This document shows positions 266 to 13,045 of a DNA stretch of 64,000 nt, piece after piece. Both the position numbers and the translations under genes were made by a program. The DNA is from Candidatus Moranbacteria bacterium RIFCSPHIGHO2_01_FULL_55_24. Lineage in GTDB: Bacteria > Patescibacteriota > Minisyncoccia > Moranbacterales > UBA1568. Each line of letters opens with the position of its first letter. Within the stretch, counting starts at the first letter, position 1. The DNA lies in assembly GCA_001786575.1 (NCBI GenBank), contig MFRW01000011.1, forward strand, positions 22,201 to 86,200, in the 5' to 3' direction. Under the pieces are notes generated by a model. The model saw only the letters and a list, made by a program, of their open reading frames with translations, searched no databases and had not been told where the DNA came from.

Positions 266-871
266 CTATTTCTTAAGACCGGCGATAAAACGTTTCAATT
301 CCGGGACCTTGTTCACTACCTCCTCGTACGGCCCCTCGAGAAATTCGATGAAGAAACGGTCCAGCATATTCAGCCGGTAGTGCAGTTCTTCGTTATTCAT
401 AAGGACAAATCGGATCTCCTTGCCGACTTCCGCCTCGAGGTGGGTGATCGCGTGGCGGAGCTTCGTCCGATTGACGTTGTTCACCACCAGAATCATGTCG
501 ACTTTGCTCTTCGGATAATTCAGGAACAAGCCGCTGATCAGGATAAGCTTGACCTCTCCGGCAGTCTTGAGTTTCCGGAAGATCTGGGACTGGGCGTGGA
601 CATTCAGCTTCGAGACCAGACTCTTGAGCTCCGTATGGAAAGGGAAATTCTCATTCACGATAAACGCCTTTTTTCCCTTGCGGGAACGCTCGAACAAGAA
701 TTTCATCTTCACGAGCTTCGCAGCCTCCCGGGTGATATCCGTTTTCGGCACGAGCGTCTTTTCTGAAATTTCCGCAACCGTGTAGTCAGCGCCGGGATTT
801 AAGAGAAAGAAGCGGAGCAACCGGGAACGAGCTTTGGAACCGAACAGAGTATCGAACAGTGCGAGCGACAT
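266..871 (-). CDS. hypothetical protein with an N-terminal winged-helix-like DNA-binding region (putative transcriptional regulator)
   Basis: 201-aa ORF. The N-terminal segment ARSRLLRFFLLNPGADYTVAEISEKTLVPKTDITREAAKL is typical of wHTH regulators; the C-terminal domain is unassigned. Confidence 0.5.
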   Translation of the reverse strand: MSLALFDTLFGSKARSRLLRFFLLNPGADYTVAEISEKTLVPKTDITREAAKLVKMKFLFERSRKGKKAFIVNENFPFHTELKSLVSKLNVHAQSQIFRKLKTAGEVKLILISGLFLNYPKSKVDMILVVNNVNRTKLRHAITHLEAEVGKEIRFVLMNNEELHYRLNMLDRFFIEFLEGPYEEVVNKVPELKRFIAGLKK

Positions 872-1033: not shown

Positions 1034-3544
1034 ATGGCGGAAAAAAAACGCGAACAAAAAATGCGGGCAATTTCTGATCTCGACCGGGTCATCACCGATA
1101 TTCTCGTAGCGGAAAAACGCTCCAACGAACCGTTCATCAAGACATTCAATTATGTCGGTGAAAACGTTTCGAAACTCGATCTCGGCACCCTGGTCGGGGT
1201 ATTCGAGGTGGACGAAAAGAGCGAAGACTCCGCCTACATCGTCAACTTCCTGGCTTCCGTAGCCAAAAAAGAATATTTCAGCAATCCGCGGCGCGGAGCC
1301 ATCGAGAGTTTCGAAGCGGCGCTTCACAAGATAAATGTCGCATTAGCCGAACTCGTGAAGCACGGCAATATCGCCTGGCTGGGGAAATTCCATGGAGCGC
1401 TCGGCGTATTCGAGAAGAACAACTTCCATTTTTCCGTCAGCGGCGAAGCCGCCATCCTGCTTTTCAGGAATAATTCCTTTGTAGAAATCAGCGAAGGGCT
1501 GGCCTCCCCGGAAGCCCAGGAGCATCCGCTCAAGACGTTCGTAGAAGTTTCAAGCGGACGGCTTATGCTCGGGGATACCCTTATTTTATCCTCCCCGGAA
1601 CTCCAAGCGCTCTTTTCAGAGGACAGTCTCGCGAAAAACCGCGAGCGCCTCGGCATTCCCGGCTTCCGCCAATTCTTGAAGACCGCGCTCGTAAATGAGC
1701 TCGATATGGCCGCGACTCTCGTGGTAGATATCACCGAGAAGGACTTTTCCGCCCAAGAAAAATCCAGCCCCGCTAAACGCAGAGCAAAGAAGGAGGATTC
1801 TCCGGATGCTGCCTCATTCAATCCCTTCAGCCAACAGGCCTTCACCCCGAAGCCGAAAGAACGCTCCGAGGAAGACGTATTCCAGCCGCATGCCGAGCCG
1901 GCGCGTTCCGAATACACCGACAGCAAAACCGGACATATCTATGTCCAAGGGGAACTCCCGGAGGATATCCCGTCCCATCGCGCTTTCTTTGACGAACTCT
2001 CGCTCCGTTTCCAGGGTCTCGCCCTCGTCATCGGAAAATCATCTTCCCAGTGGGGCCGTTCGCTCCGCAAAACAAGGAAGCAGGCAGCGCTCTCGCTCTG
2101 GGTTCTTTCCCGTAATGGGAAGGAAAAGACGCATCAGCTCACCAGAAAGAGCCGGCGCGCTCTGCAGAAGCTTTGGCGCTCGCTTGAGGAGAAACGTCAG
2201 AAGAAAGCAGCTCCCACGGAAACATACTCCCCGGAAACATTCGAAACGCTCCCGGAAGAGCCCTCTTTTGCCGATCTTGATTTCAAAGCGCCCGAAAAAC
2301 CCGCCTCACTCGAAAGAGACCTCGAGGAGCCGTTATCCGACAGACAAGAGACTAGTTTCCGTCCGCAAGCGGCTCCTTTTCTCCCAAAAAGCCGCGAACA
2401 TGGAGCACTCCAGCAGAAGCTCCGCTCCTTTTATACCCAGGAAGGCTCCCGGAGGCCTTCTTCCGTTCCTGGAGAATCACCCTCTCTCCGCCAAGCGCTT
2501 CCAAGAGGAAACACTTTTCTGGCATCCCTCCTTGCTTCAGCCAAAAAAACTCTCCGGAAGACAAGCCTGCTCTTGAGGACTCTTCCTCGAACACTCGCTT
2601 CGTTCGATATCTCTCCTCTCAAGAAGTGGCATCTCGCTCTCGGGCTCGTGATCGCCATCAGTCTTTCGGCTTTTTTCCTCCTCAAAGATGATGGGCTCGA
2701 AAGCCGGAATGCAGACGAGTCGAACCTGAACCCCCAAGAGAATTCCCTCTCTCAAGAAGCAAACGGCGAAAAGAATGCGAACGTTCTCGGAGCGCCGACC
2801 TCTCTCGAAAAAGGGCTGCCTGAAGAAACGCGTCTCGTGACCTTGAATGGCCAGCCCTATGCCGTGACCCGGGATGCTCTCATCGATGTCCGCGAAAACA
2901 AGAGCTACTCTCCCCCGACCGGAGGAAACGCCGTGCGCTTCGCGGCAGCGATGGAAGACCTGCAGCTCATCTTCCTCTTCACCGAAAACAAGCTGGTCTA
3001 TGCCTGGAGTCCTATCAGTAAGACTTTCTCCCAGAATGAGATTGCGCTTCCCGAAAATTCCTCGGTCGGCGGCATCGGGACCTACCTCACCTATCTCTAT
3101 GTATTGGATACTTCGAACGATCAGATCTACCGCTTCCCCCGGGCCGAAGGCGGTTTCGGAGCGCCCACGAACTGGTTCCGAGAATCAGTGACTATAGAAG
3201 AGAATGCCCTTTTTGCCGTCAACGAGAGCATCATCATCACGCTTACGCCGAGCGAGATAAAAGGCTTTTTCCAGGGAAAGACCAATGCGACTTTCGAGAT
3301 GCCTGGAAGCGAAGCTTCCCTCGCAGCGCTTTATACCGATCCTGACACGCCGGAGATCTACGGACTCGACAGCAAAGGGAAACGTATCATCGTCTGGGAT
3401 ACCAGCGGCAAGATCATCGCAGAGTATTTCCATGAGGCGCTTGCCGGAGCCCGCGCACTTTCGGTCGATCCTAAAAGCAAGACTTTCTTCGTAGCCGGGA
3501 GCGATGGGGAAATCCTCTCCTTCTCTCTCGGAAACGGGATCTAG
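1034..3544 (+). CDS. single-pass membrane protein: N-terminal SpoIIE/RsbU-type PP2C-like domain (catalytic motifs partly degenerate), long S/R/K/P/E-rich linker, TM helix, C-terminal extracytoplasmic repeat domain
   Basis: Manual motif alignment of the N-terminus (first 220 aa) to RsbU/SpoIIE PP2C blocks: VGVFEVDEKSEDSAYIVNFLASV vs IGDVSGKGVPAALFMAM; FSVSGEAAILLFRNNSFVEI vs CNAGHNPPLLVRNNGSIELL; LMLGDTLILSSPEL vs LEKGDILLLYTDGV; LDMAATLVVDI vs YDDITCLVVKV. The TM helix is WHLALGLVIAISLSAFFLL. The C-terminus carries repeated Y..D/W.D-like strands. TTG at 1001 is an alternative start; ATG 1034 is preferred. Confidence 0.6.
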   Translation: MAEKKREQKMRAISDLDRVITDILVAEKRSNEPFIKTFNYVGENVSKLDLGTLVGVFEVDEKSEDSAYIVNFLASVAKKEYFSNPRRGAIESFEAALHKINVALAELVKHGNIAWLGKFHGALGVFEKNNFHFSVSGEAAILLFRNNSFVEISEGLASPEAQEHPLKTFVEVSSGRLMLGDTLILSSPELQALFSEDSLAKNRERLGIPGFRQFLKTALVNELDMAATLVVDITEKDFSAQEKSSPAKRRAKKEDSPDAASFNPFSQQAFTPKPKERSEEDVFQPHAEPARSEYTDSKTGHIYVQGELPEDIPSHRAFFDELSLRFQGLALVIGKSSSQWGRSLRKTRKQAALSLWVLSRNGKEKTHQLTRKSRRALQKLWRSLEEKRQKKAAPTETYSPETFETLPEEPSFADLDFKAPEKPASLERDLEEPLSDRQETSFRPQAAPFLPKSREHGALQQKLRSFYTQEGSRRPSSVPGESPSLRQALPRGNTFLASLLASAKKTLRKTSLLLRTLPRTLASFDISPLKKWHLALGLVIAISLSAFFLLKDDGLESRNADESNLNPQENSLSQEANGEKNANVLGAPTSLEKGLPEETRLVTLNGQPYAVTRDALIDVRENKSYSPPTGGNAVRFAAAMEDLQLIFLFTENKLVYAWSPISKTFSQNEIALPENSSVGGIGTYLTYLYVLDTSNDQIYRFPRAEGGFGAPTNWFRESVTIEENALFAVNESIIITLTPSEIKGFFQGKTNATFEMPGSEASLAALYTDPDTPEIYGLDSKGKRIIVWDTSGKIIAEYFHEALAGARALSVDPKSKTFFVAGSDGEILSFSLGNGI

Positions 3545-6015
3545 GCAGCCTCCTGGATCTTGATGCGTTCCAGAATCTCGCTCTTCACGATAGAAGCATC
3601 GCGCCCATAGCGGAGACGCGAGAGCTCTTTTAAGGCATTCGCCACTTCCTGATTGCCATTCGATGGCGGATACGTCTTCATATTGAAAGGCTTCGTGAGC
3701 TCATTGTTGAGAAGGAGCCTCACGAAACAGCGGTAATTGTCTACATTGACCAGGTCCTGCGCGGAAAAGACCGGTGCGAACTGCTTTTCCAGGAATTCCG
3801 CATCATCCGGTCCTACGCGGAAGGAAATGAGCGAACCCACATTCCCGAATACCGCTTTGGATATCTCTTCCTTCAGCTGGCCGATGAACTGGTGTGCCAG
3901 GACCAGGACCAGGCGGTATTTCCGAGCTTCGGAGAGGATCTGTGCGATGGAAGTCGTCGTCACATTCTGAAACTCATCCAAGTAAAGGTAGAAATCCGAA
4001 CGCTCTTCTTCGGGCATATCGACGCGCGACAGAGCCGCCATGAGGATCTTTCCGACGATGATCATACCGAGAAGGCGCGCATTGATCTCTCCCAGACGCC
4101 CTTTGGAGAGATTCACTAAGAGGATTTTCTTCTGGTCCATGACGTCGCGGAAATTGAAGGCGCTCTTCTGTTGCGCGATAATCGGCCGCATCAGGTCGTT
4201 TGAAATGAAAGCGGTGAGCTTCGAAGTGATATAGGGAACCATATTGGCCAGAGCGGCTTCGCCTCCGGCCTTCTCGGCTTCTTTCTGCCAGAAATCCCGT
4301 ACGATCGGGTTCTCGCAGTGGGAGAGTTTCATGCGCCGGAAATTCTCATCCGCAAGCACTTTCGGGATCTCCATGAGCGTCGAACCGCTCTCGGGATGTT
4401 CCATGACCAAGAGCATGGCGTTCCGCATATACTGCTCGAACATCGGGCCTCCCGTCGCCTTCATATCGTAGAGCTGGTCGAAGATGCCGATCATCTCGTT
4501 GATGACGAACGTTTTCTGCTCGGGGTGAGCCGGGTCATACTCGAGCATATTCATACCCAGAGGCTTGCCGGTGTCTGCCGGATCGAAGACGATGACATCT
4601 TCGGCACGCTCTTTCGGGATGGACGCGAGGATATCCTCTATCGCATCGCCATGCGGATCGATGAAGCAAAACCCTTTGCCGGCTCGGGCATCCTTCTTCG
4701 CCATTTCCTGGAGGAAATTCGACTTTCCGACGCCGGTCTGCCCCACCACATACATGTGGCGGCGGCGATCGGCATCCGTGATACGGATCTCCGTCTCCGT
4801 ACCGCGGTAGTCATTGAAGCCGAGGAGCATCCCTTCATTCGGGATGTTGATCGGCGGAGCAGCCGCTCCGGCCTTCAGCCACTTGATCTTAGGCGTAGCC
4901 GTCGTAGAGATCGGGAAGTGGAAAATGCTCGCGAGCTCTTCGGTGTTCAGAAGGAAAGAATGGTCTTCATCGAAATTCCGGAAAACATAGTGGAAAGCCG
5001 CTTCGCGCGTCTTGATCCGCTTCCTGACGCGGAAACGGTTGATATCGTGGTTCTCGAACTGACCGAAGGCGCTCTCCATGTGTCCGAGGATCTCATCGGC
5101 GCGAGACTGGGTATCAGCAGAAGCCAAAAGGCGCAGATTGACGCGGAAGGCGCTCTTGCTCGTCTTCTGGTCGATCGCTTTCACAAGCTCTTCCTCGTGA
5201 GGCGTCAGCATGACAGGCTTCTTCTCGCGATCAAGCGTGCCCTTCTTATTGGCCGGACTAAGAGCGCTCATGATATCCTTTCCCATTTCGTTGCCGGCTC
5301 TCTGCATCGTTTTGCCTTTCTTCAGATCCTGGATCCGCTTGCCTTCCTGGATATGCCGGGCGATCTGCTTGCCCTCTTGGCGCCAGACGGCTCCGGCCGG
5401 AGCGAGCACCAGCTGCATCACCGCGCCTTCGCTCGCGGTGTTGAGCTTGCTTAATGAATTCGATATCCCGTTGAGCGGATCGACCCCGAGATCGCGATAG
5501 GTCACGAGCGGAAGAGCGTGATGATGAGCAAGCTCCAGTTCTGCCACCGCTACCTTGCTCCCCGGCGCGAAAATCGTGTAGTCAGGGACGCGCTCTATGG
5601 TCGCTTCCGGGAAAAAGCTATGCACCTGTTTCTCGACGCTTTCCCGGAAGCGCTTCGGGATGCCGAGATAGAAAAAGATCTCCTCGCTCGAAGAGGGATT
5701 GGCGATTTCGAAAACGATCGTCGGAGCATGATAGAGGAGGCGCGAAAGGAAATTCCCCGGATGCTTCAGATTGGAAAGCGAAACCAGAAGCTGCTCCATG
5801 GCGAGAATCTCTTCTTTCCAAGCATCAGCATTCTGGCCGGCATCCTGCTTGCGGACAACTTGAACGACCTCCAGTTCCATCATGAGCGACTGGTTCACCT
5901 GCCGCCGGAAGCGTATGAAGCTCCTCGCGACCAGAAACCCCCCGCTCCCCAGGGTGACGAACCCCAGGAACCAGGTAAAAGGAATGAAAATACTATTGAA
6001 ATCGAACTGATTCAT
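3541..6015 (-). CDS. membrane-anchored P-loop ATPase of the type IV coupling protein (VirD4/TraG/TraD, TraG-D_C-like) family with an unusual ~420-aa N-terminal domain
   Basis: N-terminal hydrophobic anchor IFIPFTWFLGFVTLGSGGFLVARSFI; Walker A VVGQTGVGKSNFL; Walker B YLYLDEFQNV (the DEF variant typical of T4CPs); downstream LVLAHQFIGQL matches the T4CP xQSxxQL motif. A GGAGG SD lies 4 nt upstream of the ATG. The stop overlaps the convergent gene by 4 nt (CTAG). Confidence 0.6.
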   Translation of the reverse strand: MNQFDFNSIFIPFTWFLGFVTLGSGGFLVARSFIRFRRQVNQSLMMELEVVQVVRKQDAGQNADAWKEEILAMEQLLVSLSNLKHPGNFLSRLLYHAPTIVFEIANPSSSEEIFFYLGIPKRFRESVEKQVHSFFPEATIERVPDYTIFAPGSKVAVAELELAHHHALPLVTYRDLGVDPLNGISNSLSKLNTASEGAVMQLVLAPAGAVWRQEGKQIARHIQEGKRIQDLKKGKTMQRAGNEMGKDIMSALSPANKKGTLDREKKPVMLTPHEEELVKAIDQKTSKSAFRVNLRLLASADTQSRADEILGHMESAFGQFENHDINRFRVRKRIKTREAAFHYVFRNFDEDHSFLLNTEELASIFHFPISTTATPKIKWLKAGAAAPPINIPNEGMLLGFNDYRGTETEIRITDADRRRHMYVVGQTGVGKSNFLQEMAKKDARAGKGFCFIDPHGDAIEDILASIPKERAEDVIVFDPADTGKPLGMNMLEYDPAHPEQKTFVINEMIGIFDQLYDMKATGGPMFEQYMRNAMLLVMEHPESGSTLMEIPKVLADENFRRMKLSHCENPIVRDFWQKEAEKAGGEAALANMVPYITSKLTAFISNDLMRPIIAQQKSAFNFRDVMDQKKILLVNLSKGRLGEINARLLGMIIVGKILMAALSRVDMPEEERSDFYLYLDEFQNVTTTSIAQILSEARKYRLVLVLAHQFIGQLKEEISKAVFGNVGSLISFRVGPDDAEFLEKQFAPVFSAQDLVNVDNYRCFVRLLLNNELTKPFNMKTYPPSNGNQEVANALKELSRLRYGRDASIVKSEILERIKIQEAA

Positions 6016-6038
6016 GAACCCTCCTTTTCACGTATGTG

Positions 6039-6455
6039 TTAGCGCAAAGCGTTCCCCTTATCGAGTGCGGCATGAAACTGCTCCGCAAGCTCATCATGCA
6101 TCATATCGAGCGCATAGAAATCCTTGAGCGAGCGCGCTACTTGGACCGCGTGCGGGACCCCCTTGGTTTCTGCCAGCGAAACGAGGTGCGTGATGCGGCT
6201 TTCCTCATCAAGCGCGGCGGTCCGGTCCGCATCGCTCCTCACTTCCTGAATCGGTGCGACCGGATTCGGGGCATGTGCCTCCACCCTTTTCAAAAGCGAC
6301 TGGAAATCCCTGTTTTCCGCAGGAGCTTCTTCTCTCTTCACCTCATGCTCATAGGAGACAGCGGCTTCCAGCGTCTCTTCACGGATTTCCTCTGCTGGAG
6401 CGTCGAGGATATCCTCCTGTTCATGGTTAATCCCATTGCCGAACTCTTCTGCCAT
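6039..6455 (-). CDS. small acidic hypothetical protein (138 aa), co-operonic with the ATPase
   Basis: ORF with strongly acidic composition (many E/D) and predicted helical character; 23-nt gap to the downstream ATPase gene. Confidence 0.5.
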   Translation of the reverse strand: MAEEFGNGINHEQEDILDAPAEEIREETLEAAVSYEHEVKREEAPAENRDFQSLLKRVEAHAPNPVAPIQEVRSDADRTAALDEESRITHLVSLAETKGVPHAVQVARSLKDFYALDMMHDELAEQFHAALDKGNALR

Positions 6456-6472
6456 AGCGTTGTACCTAAAGA

Positions 6473-6790
6473 TTACAGCCCTCCCAGATTTTTCTTCATC
6501 TCTTCCGTGAATTCCTGCGCGACTTCGCGCACAAAGACATTGTATCCCGGAATGCTCTTTTCGAAAAAGGCTTCGATTTCTTCCGCAGAAGCGCCCCGGT
6601 CCAGAAGACCTTCGTATTCCGTCACGCCGCTCTCGCCGATTTTTTCCATCGTCGCGAGAAAGAGACGTTTGATGAACGCTTCTCCCATCTGTTCGAGCAG
6701 CGCATCCCGGCGCTCTTCGGGCACCTGTTCAAGCTGGAACTCTTCTGCAAACTGCTTCTTCAATGCTTGGAGATCTGGAGTCATACGCAA
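6473..6790 (-). CDS. small acidic hypothetical protein (105 aa), co-operonic
   Basis: ORF with acidic, helical composition (EEFQLEQVPEERRDALLEQMGEAF...); 12-17 nt gaps to its neighbours. Confidence 0.5.
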   Translation of the reverse strand: MRMTPDLQALKKQFAEEFQLEQVPEERRDALLEQMGEAFIKRLFLATMEKIGESGVTEYEGLLDRGASAEEIEAFFEKSIPGYNVFVREVAQEFTEEMKKNLGGL

Positions 6791-6802
6791 AAAATATATG
6801 GT

Positions 6803-9406
6803 TTAGAATTTGAAATCGAAATCCGGATCAGCCATGCGGCGGCGCATGATGAGCGTCGTGATCCGGAGCGTGTAGCTATTGATGTCTTCGCGGCTCTTGA
6901 GATCCGCTGCTTTGCCGAACTGTTCCCGTGCCGCATCGGTAAACGATGCCAGCCGCTCCATCTGGCTCGGGTGGAGAGGATTCAGGCGGCGGCTGTAATC
7001 ATATTCCGGGTTCTCCAGCAGATGTTCATGCACCCGGAGCACCCGGTCCACCTTGATGCCTCCGAGGTTCTTCGCTCCGAAGCTGAATTGATCCGTTCCG
7101 AGAGACTGGATTTCCGGCGTTTCGAAGATATGCATGCGCGTCTGGATCAGCTCTTCTTTGGCTGTGCTGAAAAGATCCGGATGCTCCTTGAAAAAGGCTT
7201 TGTGGTCGCTCAATTCCTGGAGCTCCCGCGCGCTCAAGTCCTGCTCCGACCAAGGAAGACTCTTTTCTCCTGTCCCTCCGAGATTTTCCGGGAGGAGATT
7301 TTCCGGCTTTCCTTCGGCCTGGCCCGGGGTATCTACGGGCGTCTCATGATTCTCCAAATAGGTATCGAGATCGAGCGAGGTTTTCGCTACTGCTTCCACC
7401 GGCTCTGCTCCAGCCGCTTCGAGAGCTGCTACAGCCTTGCCATCGAGAATCGCTTGAGTCTCTTCCGGAGAGAGAATCTTCTCAAGCGAGAGCGTATCTC
7501 CGACATGGATAGCATTGATATCACCGCTCGGGAATCCGGCTGCCTGGAGTTCTTCCGGCGAAAGAGTCGGTAGTTTATTGGCAATCGCATTCTCAAGCGC
7601 CTGGATGACGCGTGCCTTCTCTCCCGGATCCATATCGGCCGGCAGACGCGCTTCGAGCACTCCCCAGAGGCCCTTGCCGCTATCGGCAGCGGTTACCAGA
7701 TGTTCCGCGAGCAGAGCCTTCGGAGACGTTTCTGCTACCGCCTGCGCCACGTTGTCAGGATCAGAGATTCCTTCTGCAATAGCATGCGGAACTCCTTCCG
7801 CTGGAAGTTCCGGGGCTATCGGAGAAGGAACCGCCTCATCAGCCAGATCAGGAGCCGGCTCGGCTGCGATCGCTTCATCAAGGGCGTTTTGCGGCGGCGT
7901 TTCAGGTGCAAGTGCCGGCTCGGTTGCCTCTGCTCCCGGCGTATCCGCTTGCAGAATATCCGAAGCGAAAGCTATTCCCGTACCGAAGGTTACAGCTGCT
8001 CCCTTGCGGAAAAGCGCGGCCCGCTTGGCTTGCTGCATCTTGCTGTCGAGCGAAGCGATGTCTTTCGTCAGAAGTTCTTTGAGTCTTTCAAAAGATTCAG
8101 CGGTCGGCAGAGCTTCGGAAAAAGTGTGTGTCTCTCTGGTAAGCGCCAAGAGTTCTTCATCGATCTCCTTTTCAGCCGCTTTCTCGGCCCGTTTCTCCGC
8201 ATATCCTTGCATGAGGACTTCTCCCGTTACTGCGCCGCCGGCACCGGCCATGAAGCGCCGTAATGTCACGATTGCGCCTCCCAGCGCGGCTCCGCCAGAA
8301 AGAGAGAGCGCTCCTGCGCCAGCGAAGCAAGCCGCTGCCAAAGCGAACTTCTGCGGACGTGAAAGGCTGTTATAGGCCTTGCCAAGACGCTCGTATGCAT
8401 CCAGGGCCCTCCCGCCCAGACCTTTCCGCTCCATGCGCACATCAGTCCGCGTTGCTACGAGATTCTTCGCTTCCTCGAATTTGAAATAGCGGAGGAGCGC
8501 CGCCATCTCGTGCTTGAGTTCGGTTCCTTTCAGTCCGCTTTTCTTCAGCTGCTCCAGCTCGAGCTCCTGAAGAGCAGTCAGTGCGCCCTCGTACTGCTCC
8601 CTCCGATAGCGCGTATCCTGGTCCTCCTCCGTGTCGCTCTTCATGCGGAAAAACGCCCGGAGCTGCTTCCAGGCATGTGATTTTTCGTAGTCTTCTTCCG
8701 CGAAGCGCCTCCGCATATCGGAAACCTCCTCCCGGCGGAGAGCGATCTCTTCGTTAAGATTCCTGGCCGGAACGGATTCCTTTTCTTTCTCGAGAGACTC
8801 GACAGACGCCGGTTCGGCTTCAGTCGGCTTCGGAACCTCCTCGGTCTGCGCTTCCGGCTCGGGAGCGGATTCAGGCTTCACGGCGTTCCCCTCTTCCCGG
8901 TCGGAAACTTCCTCCGCAACCAGAGGTATCTCGACACCAGGAACAGTCTCTTCCTGCTTTGAAGGCTTTTTCCCGCGCCGCCGCAGCGAAAGTATCTTTC
9001 CTTCCTCCGCATCCGGCATCGGCTCCGAAGGCATGGTCTCCGGCTGTGGCGTTTCCGGGCCCGAAGACTGCTCTTCTCCCTTAGGATGTTTCAAAAATGT
9101 GTACTTTTCCCTCACCTCGGACTGGCTTCCGAAAAGGAGCGTGCTTCCTGGGTGGAGCGCATCGTCTTCGCCTTCTACCACATGCGCTTCCACACCTCCT
9201 TGATCCGAGACGCTGTCGATACGTATCTCCGTGCCTTCCGCAGAAGTGAATCGATCTCCGACACGGAGCCCCTCTCCTTCCGCTGATTTTTCGGGCAAGT
9301 TCTGTTCGGGATTTTTCCCAGATGCTTTTTCCGGAGAATCAAAAACAGCCTCCGCTGATTCTGCTTCAGTCATTTTCCTTGCGCCGGCAGCTTCTCCTTC
9401 GGGCAT
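6803..9406 (-). CDS. large (867 aa) acidic, largely low-complexity protein with glycine/alanine-rich hydrophobic segments and a C-terminal globular region; first gene of the operon
   Basis: N-terminal ~330 aa E/P/S-rich; hydrophobic G/A-rich stretch FALAAACFAGAGALSLSGGAALGGAIVTLRRFMAGAGGAVTG and a second one, AAVTFGTGIAFASDIL; A/P/E-rich linker; ~250-aa C-terminal domain with no recognisable motif. Confidence 0.55.
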   Translation of the reverse strand: MPEGEAAGARKMTEAESAEAVFDSPEKASGKNPEQNLPEKSAEGEGLRVGDRFTSAEGTEIRIDSVSDQGGVEAHVVEGEDDALHPGSTLLFGSQSEVREKYTFLKHPKGEEQSSGPETPQPETMPSEPMPDAEEGKILSLRRRGKKPSKQEETVPGVEIPLVAEEVSDREEGNAVKPESAPEPEAQTEEVPKPTEAEPASVESLEKEKESVPARNLNEEIALRREEVSDMRRRFAEEDYEKSHAWKQLRAFFRMKSDTEEDQDTRYRREQYEGALTALQELELEQLKKSGLKGTELKHEMAALLRYFKFEEAKNLVATRTDVRMERKGLGGRALDAYERLGKAYNSLSRPQKFALAAACFAGAGALSLSGGAALGGAIVTLRRFMAGAGGAVTGEVLMQGYAEKRAEKAAEKEIDEELLALTRETHTFSEALPTAESFERLKELLTKDIASLDSKMQQAKRAALFRKGAAVTFGTGIAFASDILQADTPGAEATEPALAPETPPQNALDEAIAAEPAPDLADEAVPSPIAPELPAEGVPHAIAEGISDPDNVAQAVAETSPKALLAEHLVTAADSGKGLWGVLEARLPADMDPGEKARVIQALENAIANKLPTLSPEELQAAGFPSGDINAIHVGDTLSLEKILSPEETQAILDGKAVAALEAAGAEPVEAVAKTSLDLDTYLENHETPVDTPGQAEGKPENLLPENLGGTGEKSLPWSEQDLSARELQELSDHKAFFKEHPDLFSTAKEELIQTRMHIFETPEIQSLGTDQFSFGAKNLGGIKVDRVLRVHEHLLENPEYDYSRRLNPLHPSQMERLASFTDAAREQFGKAADLKSREDINSYTLRITTLIMRRRMADPDFDFKF

Positions 9407-9429
9407 ATCATTTTATTTTCTCCTGTTTC

Positions 9430-9438
9430 TGGTATAAT
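9430..9438 (+). promoter_or_regulatory. extended -10 promoter TGGTATAAT for the downstream glycosyltransferase operon
   Basis: Perfect TGnTATAAT in an AT-rich divergent intergenic region, 75 nt upstream of the ATG at 9513. Confidence 0.45.
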
Positions 9439-9466
9439 TTTAGCATAACAAACAAAAAACAAAAAA

Positions 9467-9502
9467 GGATCTGCGTCTGCTTTTTCCATACTTTGCAGAT
9501 CC
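9467..9502. repeat. perfect 8-bp inverted repeat GGATCTGC..GCAGATCC (20-nt spacer) flanked by A-tracts, in the 5' leader of the GT-C gene and in the divergent promoter region
   Basis: Read directly from the sequence: ggatctgc at 9467-9474, gcagatcc at 9495-9502. Confidence 0.6.
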
Positions 9503-9512
9503 GGAAAAATCT

Positions 9513-11111
9513 ATGCCTTCACGCGCATTCCATCGCCCCCTCCTCTGGCTCGGACTCCTGTTCATCATAGCTCTCGGGGTGTTCCTCCGGAGCTACCAGA
9601 TCGAGTCCATCCCGGCCGGACTCTACCCCGACGAGGCCACGAACGGAACCGATGCGATCCATGCGATCGAAACCGGCAATTACCTTCTCTTCTACCCGAA
9701 CAACTACGGCCGCGAAGGATTGTTCATCAATCTCCAAGCCCTCGCTCTCCAGACTTTCGGAATAAGCATCGCCGCGCTCAAGTTCTGGTCGATCGTTTTC
9801 GGCTCATTGAGTATCCTCGGCATCTACCTGCTCGGCGTAGAGCTCTTCCACCGGCGCTCCGGGGGCCTCATAGCCGCCTTCATGCTGGCTACCTCCTTCT
9901 GGGCTATCAACTTCTCGCGCATCGGCTTCCGGGCCATCATGACCTCTTTCCTGCTGTCCTTCGCCTTTTACTTCTTTTTCCGCGGGCTCCGCAGGCACCG
10001 CTACCTGGATTTCACCATTTCAGGCCTCCTCTTCGGCCTCGGAATCCACACTTACATCGCTTTCCGGCTTACCCCTCTCATCCTGATCCTGCTCCTGCCC
10101 TTCCTCATGCTTTCCTATGAGAAATTCCTGAAGCGCTTCTGGAAACATGCGCTCGTATTCGCAGCCGCCGCCTTCATCGCGGCCGCTCCCATGCTCTACC
10201 ACTTCTTCGTAGCTCACCCGGAAGATTTCGCTTCCCGTTCCGCTGCCGTCTCTATCTTCTCCCCGGAAATAAACAAGGGCGACTTCTGGGGAACGCTCGG
10301 GAAAACCTTCGGGTTGAGCATGGCGAAGTATAACTTCTGGGGCGATCAGAATTGGCGGCACAACTACCCGCCTTACCCGATCCTCGACCCTCTCGTCGGC
10401 ATGCTCTTTCTCGCCGGCTTCCTCTACATCATCTGGCAGACGATTACGCTCCTCGGCCGGCGCATCCGCGAAGGCGACCGCGACACCCGCCTCGTCAGGA
10501 ACGCCTTCCTTCTCGGGACCTTCTTCGTCATGCTCATGCCGGAATTCCTGACCGAAGAAGGCTTGCCACACGCCCTGCGCGCTATCGGCACCCAGGTACC
10601 GGTCTTCCTCATCGCCGCCCTTCCGGCCCTTTGGATCGTCAAGAAAGCCTATCGCTCGCTCCCTTCCACACGCTTCGCGCTCCTTTCCTTGCTTACCATC
10701 CTCCTTGCCGGAAGCGCCGTCATAAATATCACCAAATACTTCGTCTTCTTCGCAGCAAGCCCTCACCAGCACGGCGCCTTCAACGAGAACTACACGAACA
10801 TGGCCAAATACCTCTTGAGCCTGCCGGAAGACACCCATAAATACGTCTATGCCAACGCCGGCGGCACGAATATCGATAACGGCCTCCCGGTGACAGCACA
10901 GTCGATTACGTTCCTCACGCATGGGAAGATCAAGAACCTCGAATTCCTGAATCCGGACACGCGGATCGTCCGCCCGGCCGTCATCATCCTCATGAACTAC
11001 GATAACGGAATCGCGGAACGCATCCTGAAACGGACTCCGGGAGCGGAAATCCAGAAGATCGACCTGCACCCTGGATTCGGCAGCGATTTCCTCTCGATCG
11101 TGATCCCATAA
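9513..11111 (+). CDS. GT-C fold glycosyltransferase, PMT/ArnT-like (GT39/GT83 family), multi-pass membrane protein
   Basis: Many TM helices; first periplasmic loop carries the conserved acidic motif (LYPDEATNGTDAIHAIETGNYLLFYPNNYGREGL), as in dolichyl-phosphate-mannose protein mannosyltransferases and ArnT. Confidence 0.8.
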   Translation: MPSRAFHRPLLWLGLLFIIALGVFLRSYQIESIPAGLYPDEATNGTDAIHAIETGNYLLFYPNNYGREGLFINLQALALQTFGISIAALKFWSIVFGSLSILGIYLLGVELFHRRSGGLIAAFMLATSFWAINFSRIGFRAIMTSFLLSFAFYFFFRGLRRHRYLDFTISGLLFGLGIHTYIAFRLTPLILILLLPFLMLSYEKFLKRFWKHALVFAAAAFIAAAPMLYHFFVAHPEDFASRSAAVSIFSPEINKGDFWGTLGKTFGLSMAKYNFWGDQNWRHNYPPYPILDPLVGMLFLAGFLYIIWQTITLLGRRIREGDRDTRLVRNAFLLGTFFVMLMPEFLTEEGLPHALRAIGTQVPVFLIAALPALWIVKKAYRSLPSTRFALLSLLTILLAGSAVINITKYFVFFAASPHQHGAFNENYTNMAKYLLSLPEDTHKYVYANAGGTNIDNGLPVTAQSITFLTHGKIKNLEFLNPDTRIVRPAVIILMNYDNGIAERILKRTPGAEIQKIDLHPGFGSDFLSIVIP

Positions 11112-11146
11112 GCAAAGAACGCTAACTCATTACTTCTGTACACCCT

Positions 11147-13045
11147 ATGGATTTCCTCAAAGAGCATGCTTCCAAACTGGTAGCGGCTATCCTTCTGGTA
11201 TTCTTCGGATTGAATCTCTTCATCTCTTTCCAAGAATCCACGACGATGGATGAGAAAGCGCATATCCCCTCCGCCTATAGCTACGTCCGCTACGGCGACA
11301 TGCGTCTCAACCCTGAACATCCGCCCCTCTTGAAAGACCTCGCCGGACTGCCGCTTCTTTTCTTGGATCTCGAATTCCCTCTCCAGTCCAAAGAATGGCA
11401 AGAGGGCGTGAACGAACAGTGGGTACTGGGAGACAAATTCATCAACTGCTCCGCTCCGAGCGAAGCCTGCAACGATCCGAACGCCGTCACCTTCTGGTCC
11501 CGCCTCCCTATAATCATCATCGCGGTGCTCCTCGGCCTCATGCTCTTCCTCTGGACCAAAGAGCTTGCCGGGACCTTGGCGGGCCTGTTCGCTCTCATCC
11601 TCTACGCCTTCGATCCGAACATCATCGCCCACAGCCACTACGTCACGACCGACATCGGCATCGCCGCCTTCCTCTTCTTCTCGTTCTATTTCTTCGTGCG
11701 CTTCCTCCAGAATCCGAGTGCCAAGAACATTTTCTGGAGCGGTATTTTCCTCGGCCTCGCCCAGCTCGCGAAATTCTCGGCCGTTCTCCTTTTCCCGATC
11801 TTCGGGCTCTTCGTCATCCTCTACGCGCTCTCCAAGGCCAAGCCGGCAGGCGTAACGCTTGCCACGCCGCTCTGGAAGATCAAGGAAATCTTCCTCTTGG
11901 GGCTCAAATTCATAGGAAGCGTCGTCATCTGCTTCGCGCTCATCTGGCTCCTCTACTACCCGAACACCATGAACATGCCCGGCGAGAAACTCGTCGAGGT
12001 AGCGCATGTCATGTTCCCGGACAAAGGCCTCGGCCCGTTCGCAAAGGATTTCATCGAAGCGACCCATGCACACCCTCTTATCAAGCCCTATTCCGAATAC
12101 TTCCTCGGCGTCTTCATGGTGTTCGCGCGCGTCGCTGGCGGCAATACCTATTACTTCCTCGGGAACGTTTCCAACCACGCCTCTCCCTGGTATTTCCCTG
12201 TCGTCTTCCTCCTGAAGGAGACCCTGCCCTTCCTCTTCCTGCTCGTCGCCACCTCCCTCTACGCGTTCTACCGCATCGGGAAGAGCTTCCGCGAGGCCCA
12301 TCTCCGCTCACCCAAAGACTTCTTCGCGTTCCTCGGCCGCTCTTTCCAATCGAGGATCGTCCAGTACTTGAGCGTCTTCTTCGTGCTCTTCTACAGCTAC
12401 GTGAGCATCACGGGGAACCTCAACATCGGCTTCCGTCACCTCTTCCCGATCCTGCCGTTCCTCTACATGCTCATCGGGAAAACTCTCTTCGACATGATCC
12501 GGCGCCAGAAAGATGCCTTCACCCAGAAGGTTTCCCTCATCATCTTAGGCATCTTCTCGCTCATCATCATGGCTATCCCGATCCTGACCTACCCGAGCTA
12601 TCTCTCCTACTTCAACGGAGCCTTCGGCGGACATGAGACCGGCTACCGCTACGTGACTGATTCGAACTACGACTGGGGACAGGACGTCAAGCGCCTCAAA
12701 GTCTTCGTCGATAGCCACAATCGCTGCAAAAGCGGCATGACGTTCTCCGGAGATGATTGCACGCTTGCCGGCACCCTGCCTCCGATAGACCGGATCCGCG
12801 TCGACTACTTCGGCGGCTCCAGTCCGGCATACTACCTCGGAGACAAATTCGTTTCCTGGCACTCTTACAGCCCGCCGGAAGCCGGCTGGTACGCGATCTC
12901 CATCGGCTTCTTTCAGGAGAACATCCACACGGAGGCGAAGCCGGGCGATCTCAATTACCGCTGGCTGGCAAAATATGCCCCCGTGGCGAGGGCCGGAGAT
13001 TCCATCTTCATCTTCTACGTTCCGGAAGTTCCGGAGAGCGAATAG
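11147..13045 (+). CDS. second GT-C fold glycosyltransferase, PMT/ArnT-like paralog
   Basis: N-terminal TM helix then TMDEKAHIPSAYSYVRYGDMRLNPEHPPLL (DE motif loop); more than 10 predicted TM segments; larger C-terminal soluble domain. Confidence 0.8.
   Translation: MDFLKEHASKLVAAILLVFFGLNLFISFQESTTMDEKAHIPSAYSYVRYGDMRLNPEHPPLLKDLAGLPLLFLDLEFPLQSKEWQEGVNEQWVLGDKFINCSAPSEACNDPNAVTFWSRLPIIIIAVLLGLMLFLWTKELAGTLAGLFALILYAFDPNIIAHSHYVTTDIGIAAFLFFSFYFFVRFLQNPSAKNIFWSGIFLGLAQLAKFSAVLLFPIFGLFVILYALSKAKPAGVTLATPLWKIKEIFLLGLKFIGSVVICFALIWLLYYPNTMNMPGEKLVEVAHVMFPDKGLGPFAKDFIEATHAHPLIKPYSEYFLGVFMVFARVAGGNTYYFLGNVSNHASPWYFPVVFLLKETLPFLFLLVATSLYAFYRIGKSFREAHLRSPKDFFAFLGRSFQSRIVQYLSVFFVLFYSYVSITGNLNIGFRHLFPILPFLYMLIGKTLFDMIRRQKDAFTQKVSLIILGIFSLIIMAIPILTYPSYLSYFNGAFGGHETGYRYVTDSNYDWGQDVKRLKVFVDSHNRCKSGMTFSGDDCTLAGTLPPIDRIRVDYFGGSSPAYYLGDKFVSWHSYSPPEAGWYAISIGFFQENIHTEAKPGDLNYRWLAKYAPVARAGDSIFIFYVPEVPESE

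Follow-up and report, generated by a model that had tools for sequence, protein, structure and literature searches.

Six ORFs were confirmed in the window, that is, in the whole 64-kb stretch of DNA analyzed, and the genes, their sizes, spacings, and motifs are all as a previous sequence-only reading had described them (Table 1). On the minus strand, the genes of an 867-aa protein, a 105-aa protein, a 138-aa protein, and an 824-aa ATPase follow one another with gaps of 12, 17, and 23 nt; the first gap becomes 18 nt with the start used by public gene callers for the 105-aa gene (ATG 6784, 103 aa). The three proteins encoded before the ATPase are all acidic, with a pI of 4.6-4.8. The stop codons of the ATPase gene and of the convergent 836-aa gene share the CTAG at 3541-3544, also as claimed. 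Identical copies of the module proteins were found on 9 public contigs, and homologues keep the identical gene order in ~80 Moranbacteria genomes; these ORFs are true genes rather than chance ORFs.

Table 1. Genes and protein features at the locus, in window coordinates.
Feature	Coordinates	Strand	Basis or remark
201-aa basic wHTH protein gene	266..871	-	Divergent from 836-aa gene
836-aa protein gene	1034..3544	+	ORF; alternative TTG start at 1001; convergent to ATPase operon
Degenerate PP2C-fold domain of 836-aa protein, residues 16-235	1079..1738	+	AF2, pLDDT ~85-95; Foldseek
TM helix of 836-aa protein, residues 528-550	2615..2683	+	AF2 model
β-propeller of 836-aa protein, residues 580-831	2771..3526	+	AF2; Foldseek WD40/NHL folds
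824-aa DUF8128-type coupling-protein-like ATPase gene	3541..6015	-	ORF
RecA-like P-loop motor, residues ~396-800, with all-α insertion ~500-627	3616..4830	-	Profiles and AF2
Walker B YLYLDEF, residues 676-682	3970..3990	-	Sequence
Walker A GQTGVGKS, residues 425-432	4720..4743	-	Sequence
DUF8128 α/β domain, residues ~46-360	4936..5880	-	Precomputed PF26449; confident AF2 domain; Bacillus plasmid alignment from residue 92
Predicted membrane anchor of ATPase, N-terminal hydrophobic helix, residues ~9-34	5914..5991	-	AF2 helix 6-44; hydropathy
138-aa acidic protein gene	6039..6455	-	ORF
Conserved C-terminal helical domain of 138-aa protein, residues ~83-135	6051..6209	-	Family conservation
105-aa acidic helical protein gene, DUF5663	6473..6790	-	ORF
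867-aa acidic protein gene, first in operon	6803..9406	-	ORF

Core genes fill the remainder of the window (ribosomal operon, EF-G/Tu, FtsA/Z, ComEC, glycolysis, MurD, and MreB), with uniform GC content and a sole tRNA 42 kb from the module; an RmuC gene lies near the module. The 64 kb yielded no gene for VirB4, VirB6, a relaxase, or an integrase, in agreement with the claim that other T4SS parts are missing nearby, and the organism, described from its DNA as CPR-like, is indeed a CPR bacterium (Moranbacteria, with tiny cells). The conservation of the neighborhood was likewise confirmed, as the module order and the four-gene spacing are kept in relatives, with median gaps of 23 and 25 nt on either side of the DUF5663 gene and 39 nt between the 138-aa and ATPase genes. 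An operon of four genes, with the ATPase gene last, is thus well supported. The 836-aa gene had been counted as a fifth member of the tight unit, and this part did not stand. Its distance from the ATPase gene has a median of 213 nt and a maximum of 5.9 kb across relatives, the tail-to-tail 4-nt overlap occurs in 1 of 59 (this genome alone), and its family of 327 proteins, without any Pfam match, is exclusive to Moranbacteria. It is a real, loosely linked neighbor of the operon.

The N-terminal hydropathy maximum of the ATPase falls at residues 11-29 (KD 1.54), and the helix is followed by RFRRQ on the predicted cytoplasmic side; a single N-terminal membrane helix is predicted. The domain behind the anchor, previously taken as uncharacterized, corresponds to Pfam DUF8128; the PF26449 match, for this exact protein and every listed homologue, is a precomputed Pfam annotation at E<=1e-5. 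In the motor, HQFIGQL occupies residues 708-714. The catalytic residues are intact, and G425, K431, D680, E681, Q709, and Q713 are invariant among 59 diverse homologues. Three Pfam T4CP families exceeded their gathering scores by small margins: TrwB_AAD_bind (34.0 bits against 20.5), TraG-D_C (24.7 against 22), and T4SS-DNA_transf (22.8 against 20.1). The best NCBIfam matches were the TraD and VirD4-like models, whose equivalog cutoffs (250-650 bits) were missed by a wide margin, and the best PDB sequence matches were TrwB and DotL. The proposed relationship to VirD4/TraG/TraD proteins is therefore upheld. The motif trio, on the other hand, is not diagnostic of T4CPs, as had been stated; GQTGVGKS, YLYLDEF, and HQFIGQL are superfamily-level motifs. 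The TrwB structure was aligned to the motor over 363 of 420 residues, and the structure comparison placed the motor fold at equal distance from VirB4, TrwB, and DptH. The top Foldseek matches were full-length VirB4 (TrwK), with full-length TM-scores of ~0.3. The VirB4 families AAA_10, CagE_TrbE_VirB, and TraC_F_IV gave no match at E<=0.1, and the hhalign comparison of the ATPase family alignment with monoderm VirB4 covered the Walker A region only (probability 9.5%), whereas AAA_10 matches the VirB4 of the B. subtilis plasmid NZ_OX419581 at 8.4e-85. A placement in FtsK/HerA, which the sequence-only reading had set against its own proposal, was not observed, with no match above threshold to FtsK_SpoIIIE or to the HerA-specific domains (HerA_C and HAS barrel).

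Compared with T4CPs (VirD4/TrwB/TraD/TraG, DotL, and Cagβ), the protein has in common the P-loop motor with a predicted membrane anchor, the all-α insertion, and the conserved catalytic residues; it differs in the ~315-residue DUF8128 between anchor and motor, in the absence of adjacent relaxase or T4SS genes, and in being encoded by a chromosomal core gene. Canonical T4CPs have two TM helices, whereas one is predicted here and none in the fused forms of other lineages. VirB4/TrwK proteins are similar in size and in their two-domain layout (N-domain and C-terminal motor), but differ from the ATPase in the Pfam families and full-length TM-scores given above. Its classification as a vertically inherited chromosomal P-loop translocase, in the DUF8128 branch of the ring-forming VirD4/VirB4/HerA family, is well supported.

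Relatives on Firmicutes mobile elements were informative about ancestry. A homologue on plasmid NZ_OX419581 was aligned by BLASTP over ATPase residues 92-809 (E 2e-36, ~22% identity); its gene lies immediately upstream of a replication-relaxation (Replic_Relax) relaxase and 4.5 kb upstream of TcpD/TcpE and the separate AAA_10 VirB4. In the Bacillus phage CP-51, a Replic_Relax protein (gp90, 1.9e-18) comes next after the homologue gp91, and phrog_5156 matches the ATPase at 3e-90 over residues 97-817. These pairs have the full-length DUF8128-plus-motor layout in common with the window protein; they differ in lying on mobile elements beside a relaxase, the plasmid copy with a Tcp-like T4SS, whereas the window copy is chromosomal. 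The relaxase-adjacent slot is a coupling-protein position, from which we infer that DUF8128 ATPases originally served as type IV coupling proteins, a role that is putative for the Firmicutes pairs too. The plasmid and phage relatives are tractable systems for learning the role of the DUF8128 domain.

The 138-aa homologue lies immediately 5' of the ATPase gene in 82 loci, including a relative with 38% identity. Its HMM matches the N-terminal extensions of ATPases from other lineages (P0241 at 1.6e-10, P0286 at 8.9e-8, P0275 at 1.8e-7, and others), and more than eight representative lineages encode the domain and the ATPase as one fused protein. Because of this fusion, the conserved helical part of the 138-aa protein is recognized as an N-terminal domain split off from the ATPase and, as such, almost certainly docks on the motor. 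Of the two small proteins described earlier as acidic and chaperone-sized, both are acidic, but the 138-aa protein is better read as this split-off domain than as a chaperone-sized partner; together with the ATPase, it makes a concrete binary pair for testing. The 105-aa protein matches Pfam DUF5663 (7.8e-6, 26.8 bits against a cutoff of 23.7, 80 of 84 profile positions), an assignment also precomputed for its public copies. Its gene occurs in 65 loci, and no PDB relatives were found. The 867-aa protein is largely low-complexity, with a conserved helical core at residues ~221-480 and Gly/Ala-rich hydrophobic segments at 354-393 and 469-487, which are weak (KD 1.1-1.5). A weak LysM-like stretch spans ~570-645 (LytE LysM region, E 0.026), and one family member has a weak Pfam LysM match at 0.051. 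Homologues are present in 63 loci and are merely 25-40% identical. Tight spacing of the 867-aa and DUF5663 genes is limited to Moranbacteria and near relatives.

The 836-aa protein is predicted to be single-pass, with a PP2C fold devoid of catalytic motifs and an extracytoplasmic β-propeller; the degenerate PP2C-like and extracytoplasmic domains had been recognized beforehand, and AF2 and Foldseek agree with them. The top Foldseek match of the PP2C-fold domain was the S. agalactiae Stp (2pk0_A, E 1.5e-10, TM(target) 0.64), and PppA (6jkv_A) was also matched. The PP2C/SpoIIE profiles of Pfam and NCBIfam did not match, and the family profile found no PP2C in the PDB. RSNEP, with the invariant P33 in place of Asp, replaces RxxNED, SSPEL (P188 invariant) replaces SDGL, and DGxGG is absent, with the motifs registered by eye rather than by structural superposition.

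Patescibacteria comprise a large part of bacterial diversity, and for the majority of the conserved genes enriched in their lineages, no role is known. Among relatives, the ATPase is conserved to the level of RF1, with a median identity of 68% and 1.43 bits/aa against 71% and 1.36 bits/aa for RF1; holB (41%) and FtsQ (31%) are lower. All ten ATPase loci examined (10/10) lie in core-genome surroundings, and no T4SS or relaxase gene was found within 8-10 kb of the ATPase in eight lineages (within 6-10 kb at loci L098, L099, L101, L102, L103, L108, and L109). The module had been called undescribed, which is not so for its ATPase: orphan T4CP homologues, proteins of the same kind, have been reported in 2,918 of 3,035 Patescibacteria genomes (PMC12102498), and Southlakia SEML1_0142 and SEML1_0293 (PMC10633639) also belong here.

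The Southlakia locus runs L28, S2P, L20, L35, IF3, ComM, a small gene, the ATPase SEML1_0142, gyrB, gyrA, and PAP2, which is identical to the gene order of the saccharibacterial DUF8128 loci L108 and L109; SEML1_0142 is the positional orthologue of these ATPases. The window ATPase was assigned to SEML1_0142, and not to the non-essential SEML1_0293, by family membership and synteny within Saccharibacteria rather than by a tree. In the published Tn-seq, SEML1_0142 was scored ES/ES/ES, and the upstream 139-aa gene SEML1_0141 had 0 insertions and was essential (Table S1, PMC10633639). The essentiality of SEML1_0142 is not discussed in the literature, including Wang et al. 2023 (PMC10633639) and Quiñonero-Coronel et al. 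2025 (PMC12102498), the latter of whom called the Southlakia homologue non-essential; neither paper gives domain architecture, operon partners, or conservation analysis for the orphan T4CP homologues. The T4SS of Southlakia is also essential, and its own cluster has no coupling protein. Since Southlakia keeps a canonical, essential FtsK, and since deletion of its comEC abolishes competence without loss of viability, the ATPase is neither an FtsK substitute nor a DNA-uptake motor, and its essential role can be neither ComEC-dependent uptake nor FtsK-type segregation. With an essential counterpart in the one genetically tractable CPR bacterium, this conjugation-derived, former plasmid-transfer motor now seems to be a core gene.

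The ATPase is a domesticated coupling-protein-type motor. As the best explanation of the whole, we tentatively propose, with somewhat less than even confidence, a T4CP-like DUF8128 motor operon that feeds cargo to the chromosomal T4SS. Driven by ATP, the ancestral T4CP would have served as a receptor, accepting a substrate and delivering it to a channel in the membrane; Patescibacteria would have lost the relaxase partner, and the gene would have turned core. The ATPase may still work at the membrane as a hexameric motor, recruiting a macromolecule (likelier protein than DNA) and pushing it, and this cargo may pass to a relaxase-less chromosomal T4SS of the VirB4 type, whose genes lie elsewhere, near dnaA. 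Regulation or adaptor functions would fall to the 138-aa domain and the DUF5663 protein, and the 867-aa protein would be either a membrane partner or the cargo. The PP2C-like/β-propeller protein would be a sensor or scaffold of the envelope, particular to the lineage, and may or may not communicate with the ATPase. However, the ATPase-T4SS link is purely a proposal, and the gene almost never lies near virB4 (148 of 5,713 copies of T4CP homologues in Patescibacteria; PMC12102498). The extreme conservation is unusual for the receptor of a fast-evolving cargo, the modeled motor fold is no nearer to TrwB than to VirB4 or DptH, and the small upstream gene is the only accessory kept outside Moranbacteria and close relatives. 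The question is thereby sharpened: either this ATPase may be the coupling protein that the essential, relaxase-less T4SS of CPR bacteria is missing, or it may drive a machine distinct from that T4SS.

The module may also be partly an illusion of gene order in a low-rearrangement lineage; in this reading, cooperation is confined to the ATPase and the small gene upstream of it, and the 867-aa and DUF5663 genes, above all the 836-aa and wHTH genes, are mere neighbors. The flanking housekeeping genes (two PMT_2 glycosyltransferases, RmuC, MraY-like, and RF1) equal the module genes in synteny, insertions displace the 836-aa gene, GtrA stands in its place in L103, a relative at 52% identity, and distant lineages keep the small upstream ORF only. 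We regard this reading as unlikely but serious. Against it, the four operon genes are spaced 23-39 nt in most relatives, and the series from a large acidic protein through two small ORFs to the ATPase is still present in L103 even with unrecognizable sequences. A self-contained, T4SS-independent envelope machine, composed of the DUF8128 motor, its operon partners, and maybe the 836-aa protein in Moranbacteria, seems unlikely as well. In it, the 867-aa protein would contribute hydrophobic segments and possibly a wall-binding domain to the export or insertion of a substrate or to envelope remodeling. The tight operon kept in ~60 genomes, the RF1-level conservation, the rarity near virB4, and two membrane-associated neighbors with predicted extracytoplasmic domains fit such a machine, and the wider spread of T4CP homologues (96% of Patescibacteria genomes) than of VirB4 (80%) hints at a T4SS-independent role. 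By analogy only, the T7SSb core (EssC motor, EssB pseudo-kinase membrane scaffold, and EsaA) also pairs an FtsK/HerA-superfamily motor with small acidic, large membrane-associated, and single-pass pseudo-enzyme proteins with an extracytoplasmic domain; membrane scaffolds that are pseudo-enzymes have precedents in Gram-positive T4SS and T7SS (PMC13037476). Nevertheless, no channel-like polytopic protein is encoded, the 867-aa hydrophobic segments are weak, the 836-aa gene is loosely spaced, and homologues of the 867-aa, DUF5663, and 836-aa proteins were detected in Moranbacteria and near relatives only, which for an ancient, essential machine would require a change of partners from one lineage to the next. 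It is rather unlikely that Patescibacteria possess, across the phylum, an essential machine for translocation or assembly that is independent of the T4SS and in which the ATPase and its detachable N-domain accept lineage-specific envelope partners (in this genome the 867-aa protein and, perhaps, the receptor with pseudo-phosphatase and β-propeller domains); if true, it would be a new type of secretion or envelope system beneath the episymbiotic lifestyle.

A translocase that serves DNA transactions of the cell itself, apart from protein secretion (for example, importing DNA to scavenge nucleotides, handling the chromosome, or relaxase-less cell-cell transfer, in the manner of Ced/TraB), is quite improbable. 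The DNA-transfer ancestry indicated by the relaxase-adjacent relatives and the weak NCBIfam matches to the archaeal DNA importers CedD (4.5e-4) and CedB are consistent with it, as is the inability of CPR bacteria to make nucleotides (PMC10633639). DNA-metabolism genes recur nearby (gyrBA in L102, L108, L109, and Southlakia; DnaX in L098 and L103; RmuC), but replication-gene neighbors would be expected by chance in ~1-Mb genomes. The operon has no DNA-binding partner, nickase, or oriT-like feature, and the essential canonical FtsK and viable comEC loss in Southlakia also speak against this role. Defense genes are usually patchy and variable, whereas this locus is single, fixed, and syntenic in every Moranbacteria genome examined, has no nuclease, methylase, or Sir2 partner, and has a positional orthologue needed for growth in Southlakia. 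An anti-phage ATPase of the HerA/DptH/MADS type, with the wHTH protein as regulator, is therefore disfavored and very improbable, despite the domain-level match of PADLOC mad8 to the motor (1.7e-14), several weak HerA matches, and the full-length match of the wHTH protein to the defense-candidate family PDC-M05A (5.8e-20). It is doubtful that the wHTH gene belongs to the module; its product matches MarR_2 at 1.4e-4, under the cutoff, and its homologues share a median identity of 73% in 42-43 loci.

The sequence-only reading had proposed an undescribed module around a coupling-protein-like (T4CP-like) ATPase. We confirmed its observations: the six open reading frames (ORFs) and their coordinates, the intergenic gaps of 12/18, 17 and 23 nt in the four-gene operon, the overlap of the convergent ATPase and 836-aa stops (CTAG, 3541-3544), the acidity of the 138-, 105- and 867-aa proteins (pI 4.6-4.8), and the ATPase motifs GQTGVGKS (Walker A, residues 425-432), YLYLDEF (Walker B, 676-682) and HQFIGQL (708-714). 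Nine public contigs carry an identical ATPase, and none of the module genes has a paralogue elsewhere in the window. The names under which the closest homologues are filed place the organism in Moranbacteria (Patescibacteria/CPR). A scan for sigma-70 promoters and terminators told us little, since the counts did not exceed the shuffle expectation.

Genes of the locus (window coordinates) and predicted parts of the ATPase (residues)
Feature	Position	Strand	Basis or remark
201-aa wHTH protein	266-871	-	ORF
836-aa protein	1034-3544	+	ORF
824-aa ATPase	3541-6015	-	ORF
138-aa protein	6039-6455	-	ORF
105-aa protein (DUF5663)	6473-6790	-	ORF; public gene callers start at the ATG at 6784 (103 aa)
867-aa protein	6803-9406	-	ORF
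ATPase, N-terminal helix	residues 6-44		AF2; hydrophobic core ~9-34
ATPase, α/β domain	residues 46-360		AF2
ATPase, RecA-like motor	residues 396-800		AF2; helical insertion ~500-627

The rest of the window is filled by core genome (ribosomal protein operon, EF-G/Tu, FtsA/FtsZ, ComEC, glycolysis, MurD, MreB), and its only tRNA is distant. A mobile-element origin of the locus was rejected because the GC content is uniform across the window, neither an integrase nor a flanking tRNA is present, and about 80 genomes have the locus at the same position. ComEC is represented by two adjacent genes at ~49.0-51.3 kb on the minus strand (L107 4646-6968), DUF4131+Competence (527 aa) followed by Lactamase_B (229 aa). 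A pair of PMT_2 (GT-C) glycosyltransferase genes (9513-13045, plus strand) adjoins the operon, even in the 52%-identity relative (L103, 137-3799), and in two relatives the next gene after the ATPase belongs to the GtrA family (L103 10630-11289; L086 2837-3247). These neighbours could connect the locus with surface glycosylation, or could be no more than synteny.

In the precomputed Pfam annotation, the ATPase motor is preceded by DUF8128 (PF26449); the N-terminal domain, previously called uncharacterised, therefore already had a name, though no known function. Both this kind of protein and the two DUFs, DUF8128 and DUF5663, were already catalogued; the architecture of anchor, DUF8128 and motor is new. 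The motor passed the Pfam gathering scores of TrwB_AAD_bind (34 bits), TraG-D_C, T4SS-DNA_transf and DUF87 by small margins. The best NCBIfam matches were TraD and VirD4-like models, far under their equivalog cut-offs, and the best PDB sequence matches were TrwB and DotL. The AF2 model, which drew on 59 diverse homologues, was confident (pLDDT 87.5, pTM 0.77). Foldseek returned its best E-values for full-length TrwK/VirB4, yet with a TM of only ~0.3; thus, the predicted fold points to the VirB4/VirD4/HerA clade as a whole rather than to its T4CP or VirB4 branch. The VirB4-specific Pfam models gave no match, and the family profile matched a genuine monoderm VirB4 around Walker A only. The three motifs, earlier taken as diagnostic of T4CPs, turned out to be superfamily features. 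The family comprises 22,357 representatives (50% clustering, E<=1e-3), or 5,901 at E<=1e-30. Chromosomal DUF8128 ATPases of 1,700-2,000 aa also exist (L102 8001-14021, P0295; representatives P0294-P0313), their extra length being a Pro/Ala-rich C-terminal tail with repeated 'PPIGAPPVDL' and 'LxITDITGG'.

We examined ten loci from different lineages, including the window, relatives at 52, 46, 40, 38 and 34% identity, a 2,006-aa form and two Saccharibacteria. All lie among housekeeping genes, and no T4SS or relaxase gene was found within 6-10 kb of the ATPase. Across 80 Moranbacteria genomes, the ATPase had a median identity of 68% (1.43 bits/aa), compared with 71% for RF1 (1.36 bits/aa), 51% for the MraY-like protein (0.84), 41% for holB (0.56) and 31% for FtsQ (0.42). 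The ATPase is under housekeeping-level constraint, and this RF1-level conservation is a new observation. Orphan T4CP homologues in CPR were already known: a survey of Patescibacteria (Quiñonero-Coronel et al. 2025, PMC12102498) reported 5,713 VirD4-type homologues in 2,918 of 3,035 genomes, only 148 of them near virB4, with VirB4 itself in 2,417 genomes, and allowed for exaptation, which 'cannot be ruled out'. The orphan, core-genome context seen here agrees with that survey.

Essentiality was assessed from the published Tn-seq data of Southlakia epibionticum, which has two T4CP-like genes, both outside its T4SS cluster (Table S1, Wang et al. 2023, PMC10633639). SEML1_0142 (1,019 aa, 'TraM recognition domain') was scored ES/ES/ES, with 11, 11 and 9 insertions against 114 in the input DNA, and SEML1_0141 (139 aa, 12 nt upstream) was scored GD/ES/ES with 0 insertions. 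The paralogue SEML1_0293 (921 aa) was NE/NE/NE, with 87, 120 and 110 insertions (82 in the input DNA). SEML1_0142 is also flagged there as a core, Patescibacteria-enriched family. Its gene order (L28, site-2 protease, L20, L35, IF3, ComM, small ORFs, ATPase, gyrB, gyrA, PAP2) is the same as at two saccharibacterial loci (L108, L109) whose ATPase has DUF8128, which makes SEML1_0142 the positional orthologue of that ATPase. A relative of these two loci bears the name Candidatus Saccharibacteria. The 2025 survey termed the Southlakia t4cp homologue non-essential, as if there were a single one; in contrast, SEML1_0142 and SEML1_0141 are scored essential and only SEML1_0293 is not. Neither paper discusses SEML1_0142, and our literature search found no papers on it, on DUF8128 or on DUF5663. 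The recognition that the pair is essential is new.

In 82 loci, among them that of a 38%-identity relative, the 138-aa gene immediately precedes the ATPase gene. In other lineages, its HMM matched ATPase representatives in their N-terminal extensions (1.6e-10 for P0241, residues 2-55; 8.9e-8 for P0286; 1.8e-7 for P0275; also P0261, P0264, P0248 and P0258), with a common motif, ...LAxxKGVxxAxxVxxxxxDxxxxDxxHDxL.... The fused domain replaces the TM helix in P0241 and P0247 and stands ahead of two TM helices in P0286. These fusions show the 138-aa protein to be an N-terminal motor domain that has become detached, a type of partner that is new, rather than the generic chaperone that its size had suggested. 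Searched with the accessory-protein HMMs, distant loci and viral contigs yielded matches to the 138-aa family alone, in L086 and the fusions. The small upstream ORFs of five loci (L098, L101, L102, L103, L108) showed neither detectable similarity nor a Pfam match.

The DUF5663 and 867-aa genes, present in 65 and 63 loci, keep operon-like spacing (medians of 23 and 25 nt). Both evolve fast (41% and 29% identity), and neither protein was recognisable by HMM in distant loci outside Moranbacteria. The 52%-identity Parcubacteria relative (L103) keeps the order PMT, PMT, 1,033-aa acidic protein, 74-aa ORF, 135-aa ORF and ATPase. Profile comparison showed the 138-aa and DUF5663 proteins to be unrelated to each other, and the family profiles of the 138-aa, DUF5663 and 867-aa proteins had no significant matches among PDB sequences. 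Of the 105-, 138-, 867- and 836-aa proteins, only the first (DUF5663) had a match in Pfam, NCBIfam, PHROGs and PADLOC. In the 867-aa protein, the N-terminus is acidic and disordered, and the helical core (221-480), which is conserved, contains hydrophobic segments rich in Gly/Ala; there are also a Pro/Ala/Glu linker and a weak LysM-like stretch. This stretch (residues ~570-645) resembles a peptidoglycan-binding motif, below significance both for the family profile against the LytE LysM region (E 0.026) and for one homologue against Pfam LysM (0.051).

For the 836-aa protein, AF2 and Foldseek confirmed a PP2C-fold N-domain, one TM helix and a C-terminal β-propeller. The PP2C-fold domain matched 2pk0 at E 1.5e-10 and also the T6SS regulator PppA; no sequence profile recognised PP2C. 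The metal-binding motifs, registered by eye, are replaced by RSNEP and SSPEL with invariant prolines, and DGxGG is absent, which bears out the earlier description of the domain as degenerate. The gene is restricted to Moranbacteria (327 proteins), where the operon and this pseudo-phosphatase neighbour are new. Its distance to the ATPase gene has a median of 213 nt and reaches 5.9 kb, with overlap in the window genome only, and in L103 a GtrA gene stands in its place. Any functional link to the ATPase is putative. The wHTH protein, 73% conserved and syntenic across Moranbacteria, matched along its entire length PDC-M05A, a candidate phage-defence family in PADLOC (5.8e-20); its conservation and synteny are more what one expects of a core regulator than of a defence gene, and we found no link between it and the ATPase.

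Placement in the family, core status, the operon, the fusion and the essentiality of SEML1_0142 are established; how the ATPase works is an inference. Its homology with TrwB, VirB4 and HerA suggests a hexameric ring at the membrane. It would still move a macromolecule. Its channel could be the T4SS, which is relaxase-less, essential and encoded at a distance, in a cluster that has no coupling protein, and we tentatively favour this possibility. The main rival is a T4SS-independent machine, which we consider unlikely; in its favour, T4CP homologues are more widely distributed than VirB4 and the ATPase gene sits in its own operon. The function is directly testable.

A DNA-handling role is less likely than both and seems rather improbable. 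In Southlakia the canonical FtsK is retained and essential, and ComEC is dispensable for viability; the essential role of the ATPase would thus be neither FtsK-type segregation nor ComEC-dependent DNA uptake, so that an FtsK substitute and a ComEC-coupled uptake motor are disfavoured. A defence role is disfavoured as well and appears very improbable. As for the neighbours, synteny alone has a fair chance of explaining why the 836-aa and wHTH genes lie beside the T4CP-like motor, and perhaps the same goes for the 867-aa and DUF5663 genes.

Relatives of the ATPase were also found on mobile elements. By tblastn, full-length homologues occur on 322 plasmids, mostly of Streptomyces, Bacillus, Clostridium, haloarchaea and Sulfolobus, and in Bacillus phages; phrog_5156 matched ATPase residues 97-817 at 3e-90. 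The IMG/VR scan gave 11 motor-domain relatives, none accompanied by accessory genes. The homologue encoded by B. subtilis plasmid NZ_OX419581 aligns over residues 92-809 (BLASTP 2e-36). Its gene lies immediately upstream of one for a replication-relaxation relaxase, and TcpD/TcpE and a separate AAA_10 VirB4 are encoded 4.5 kb downstream of it. In phage CP-51, the ATPase gp91 precedes gp90, which belongs to Replic_Relax (1.9e-18). Because of this relaxase-adjacent gene order, the DUF8128 ATPase would be the coupling protein of these elements; the literature holds no experiments on them that we found, and the tie between them and the chromosomal motor is new. The ATPase gene is directly followed by a Replic_Relax gene in the large Bacillus phages CP-51 (L100 5749-9310, gp91-gp90), G, JL and Shanette, with a partition protein upstream, a conjugation-like pair within a phage. 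On the C. botulinum plasmid pCBG (L105), a 133-aa ORF (7531-7932), just under the Pfam TrbC/VirB2 pilin cut-off (27.7 vs 27.9 bits), overlaps and precedes a distant full-length homologue (7929-10331), and this VirB2-then-ATPase order is more typical of VirB4.
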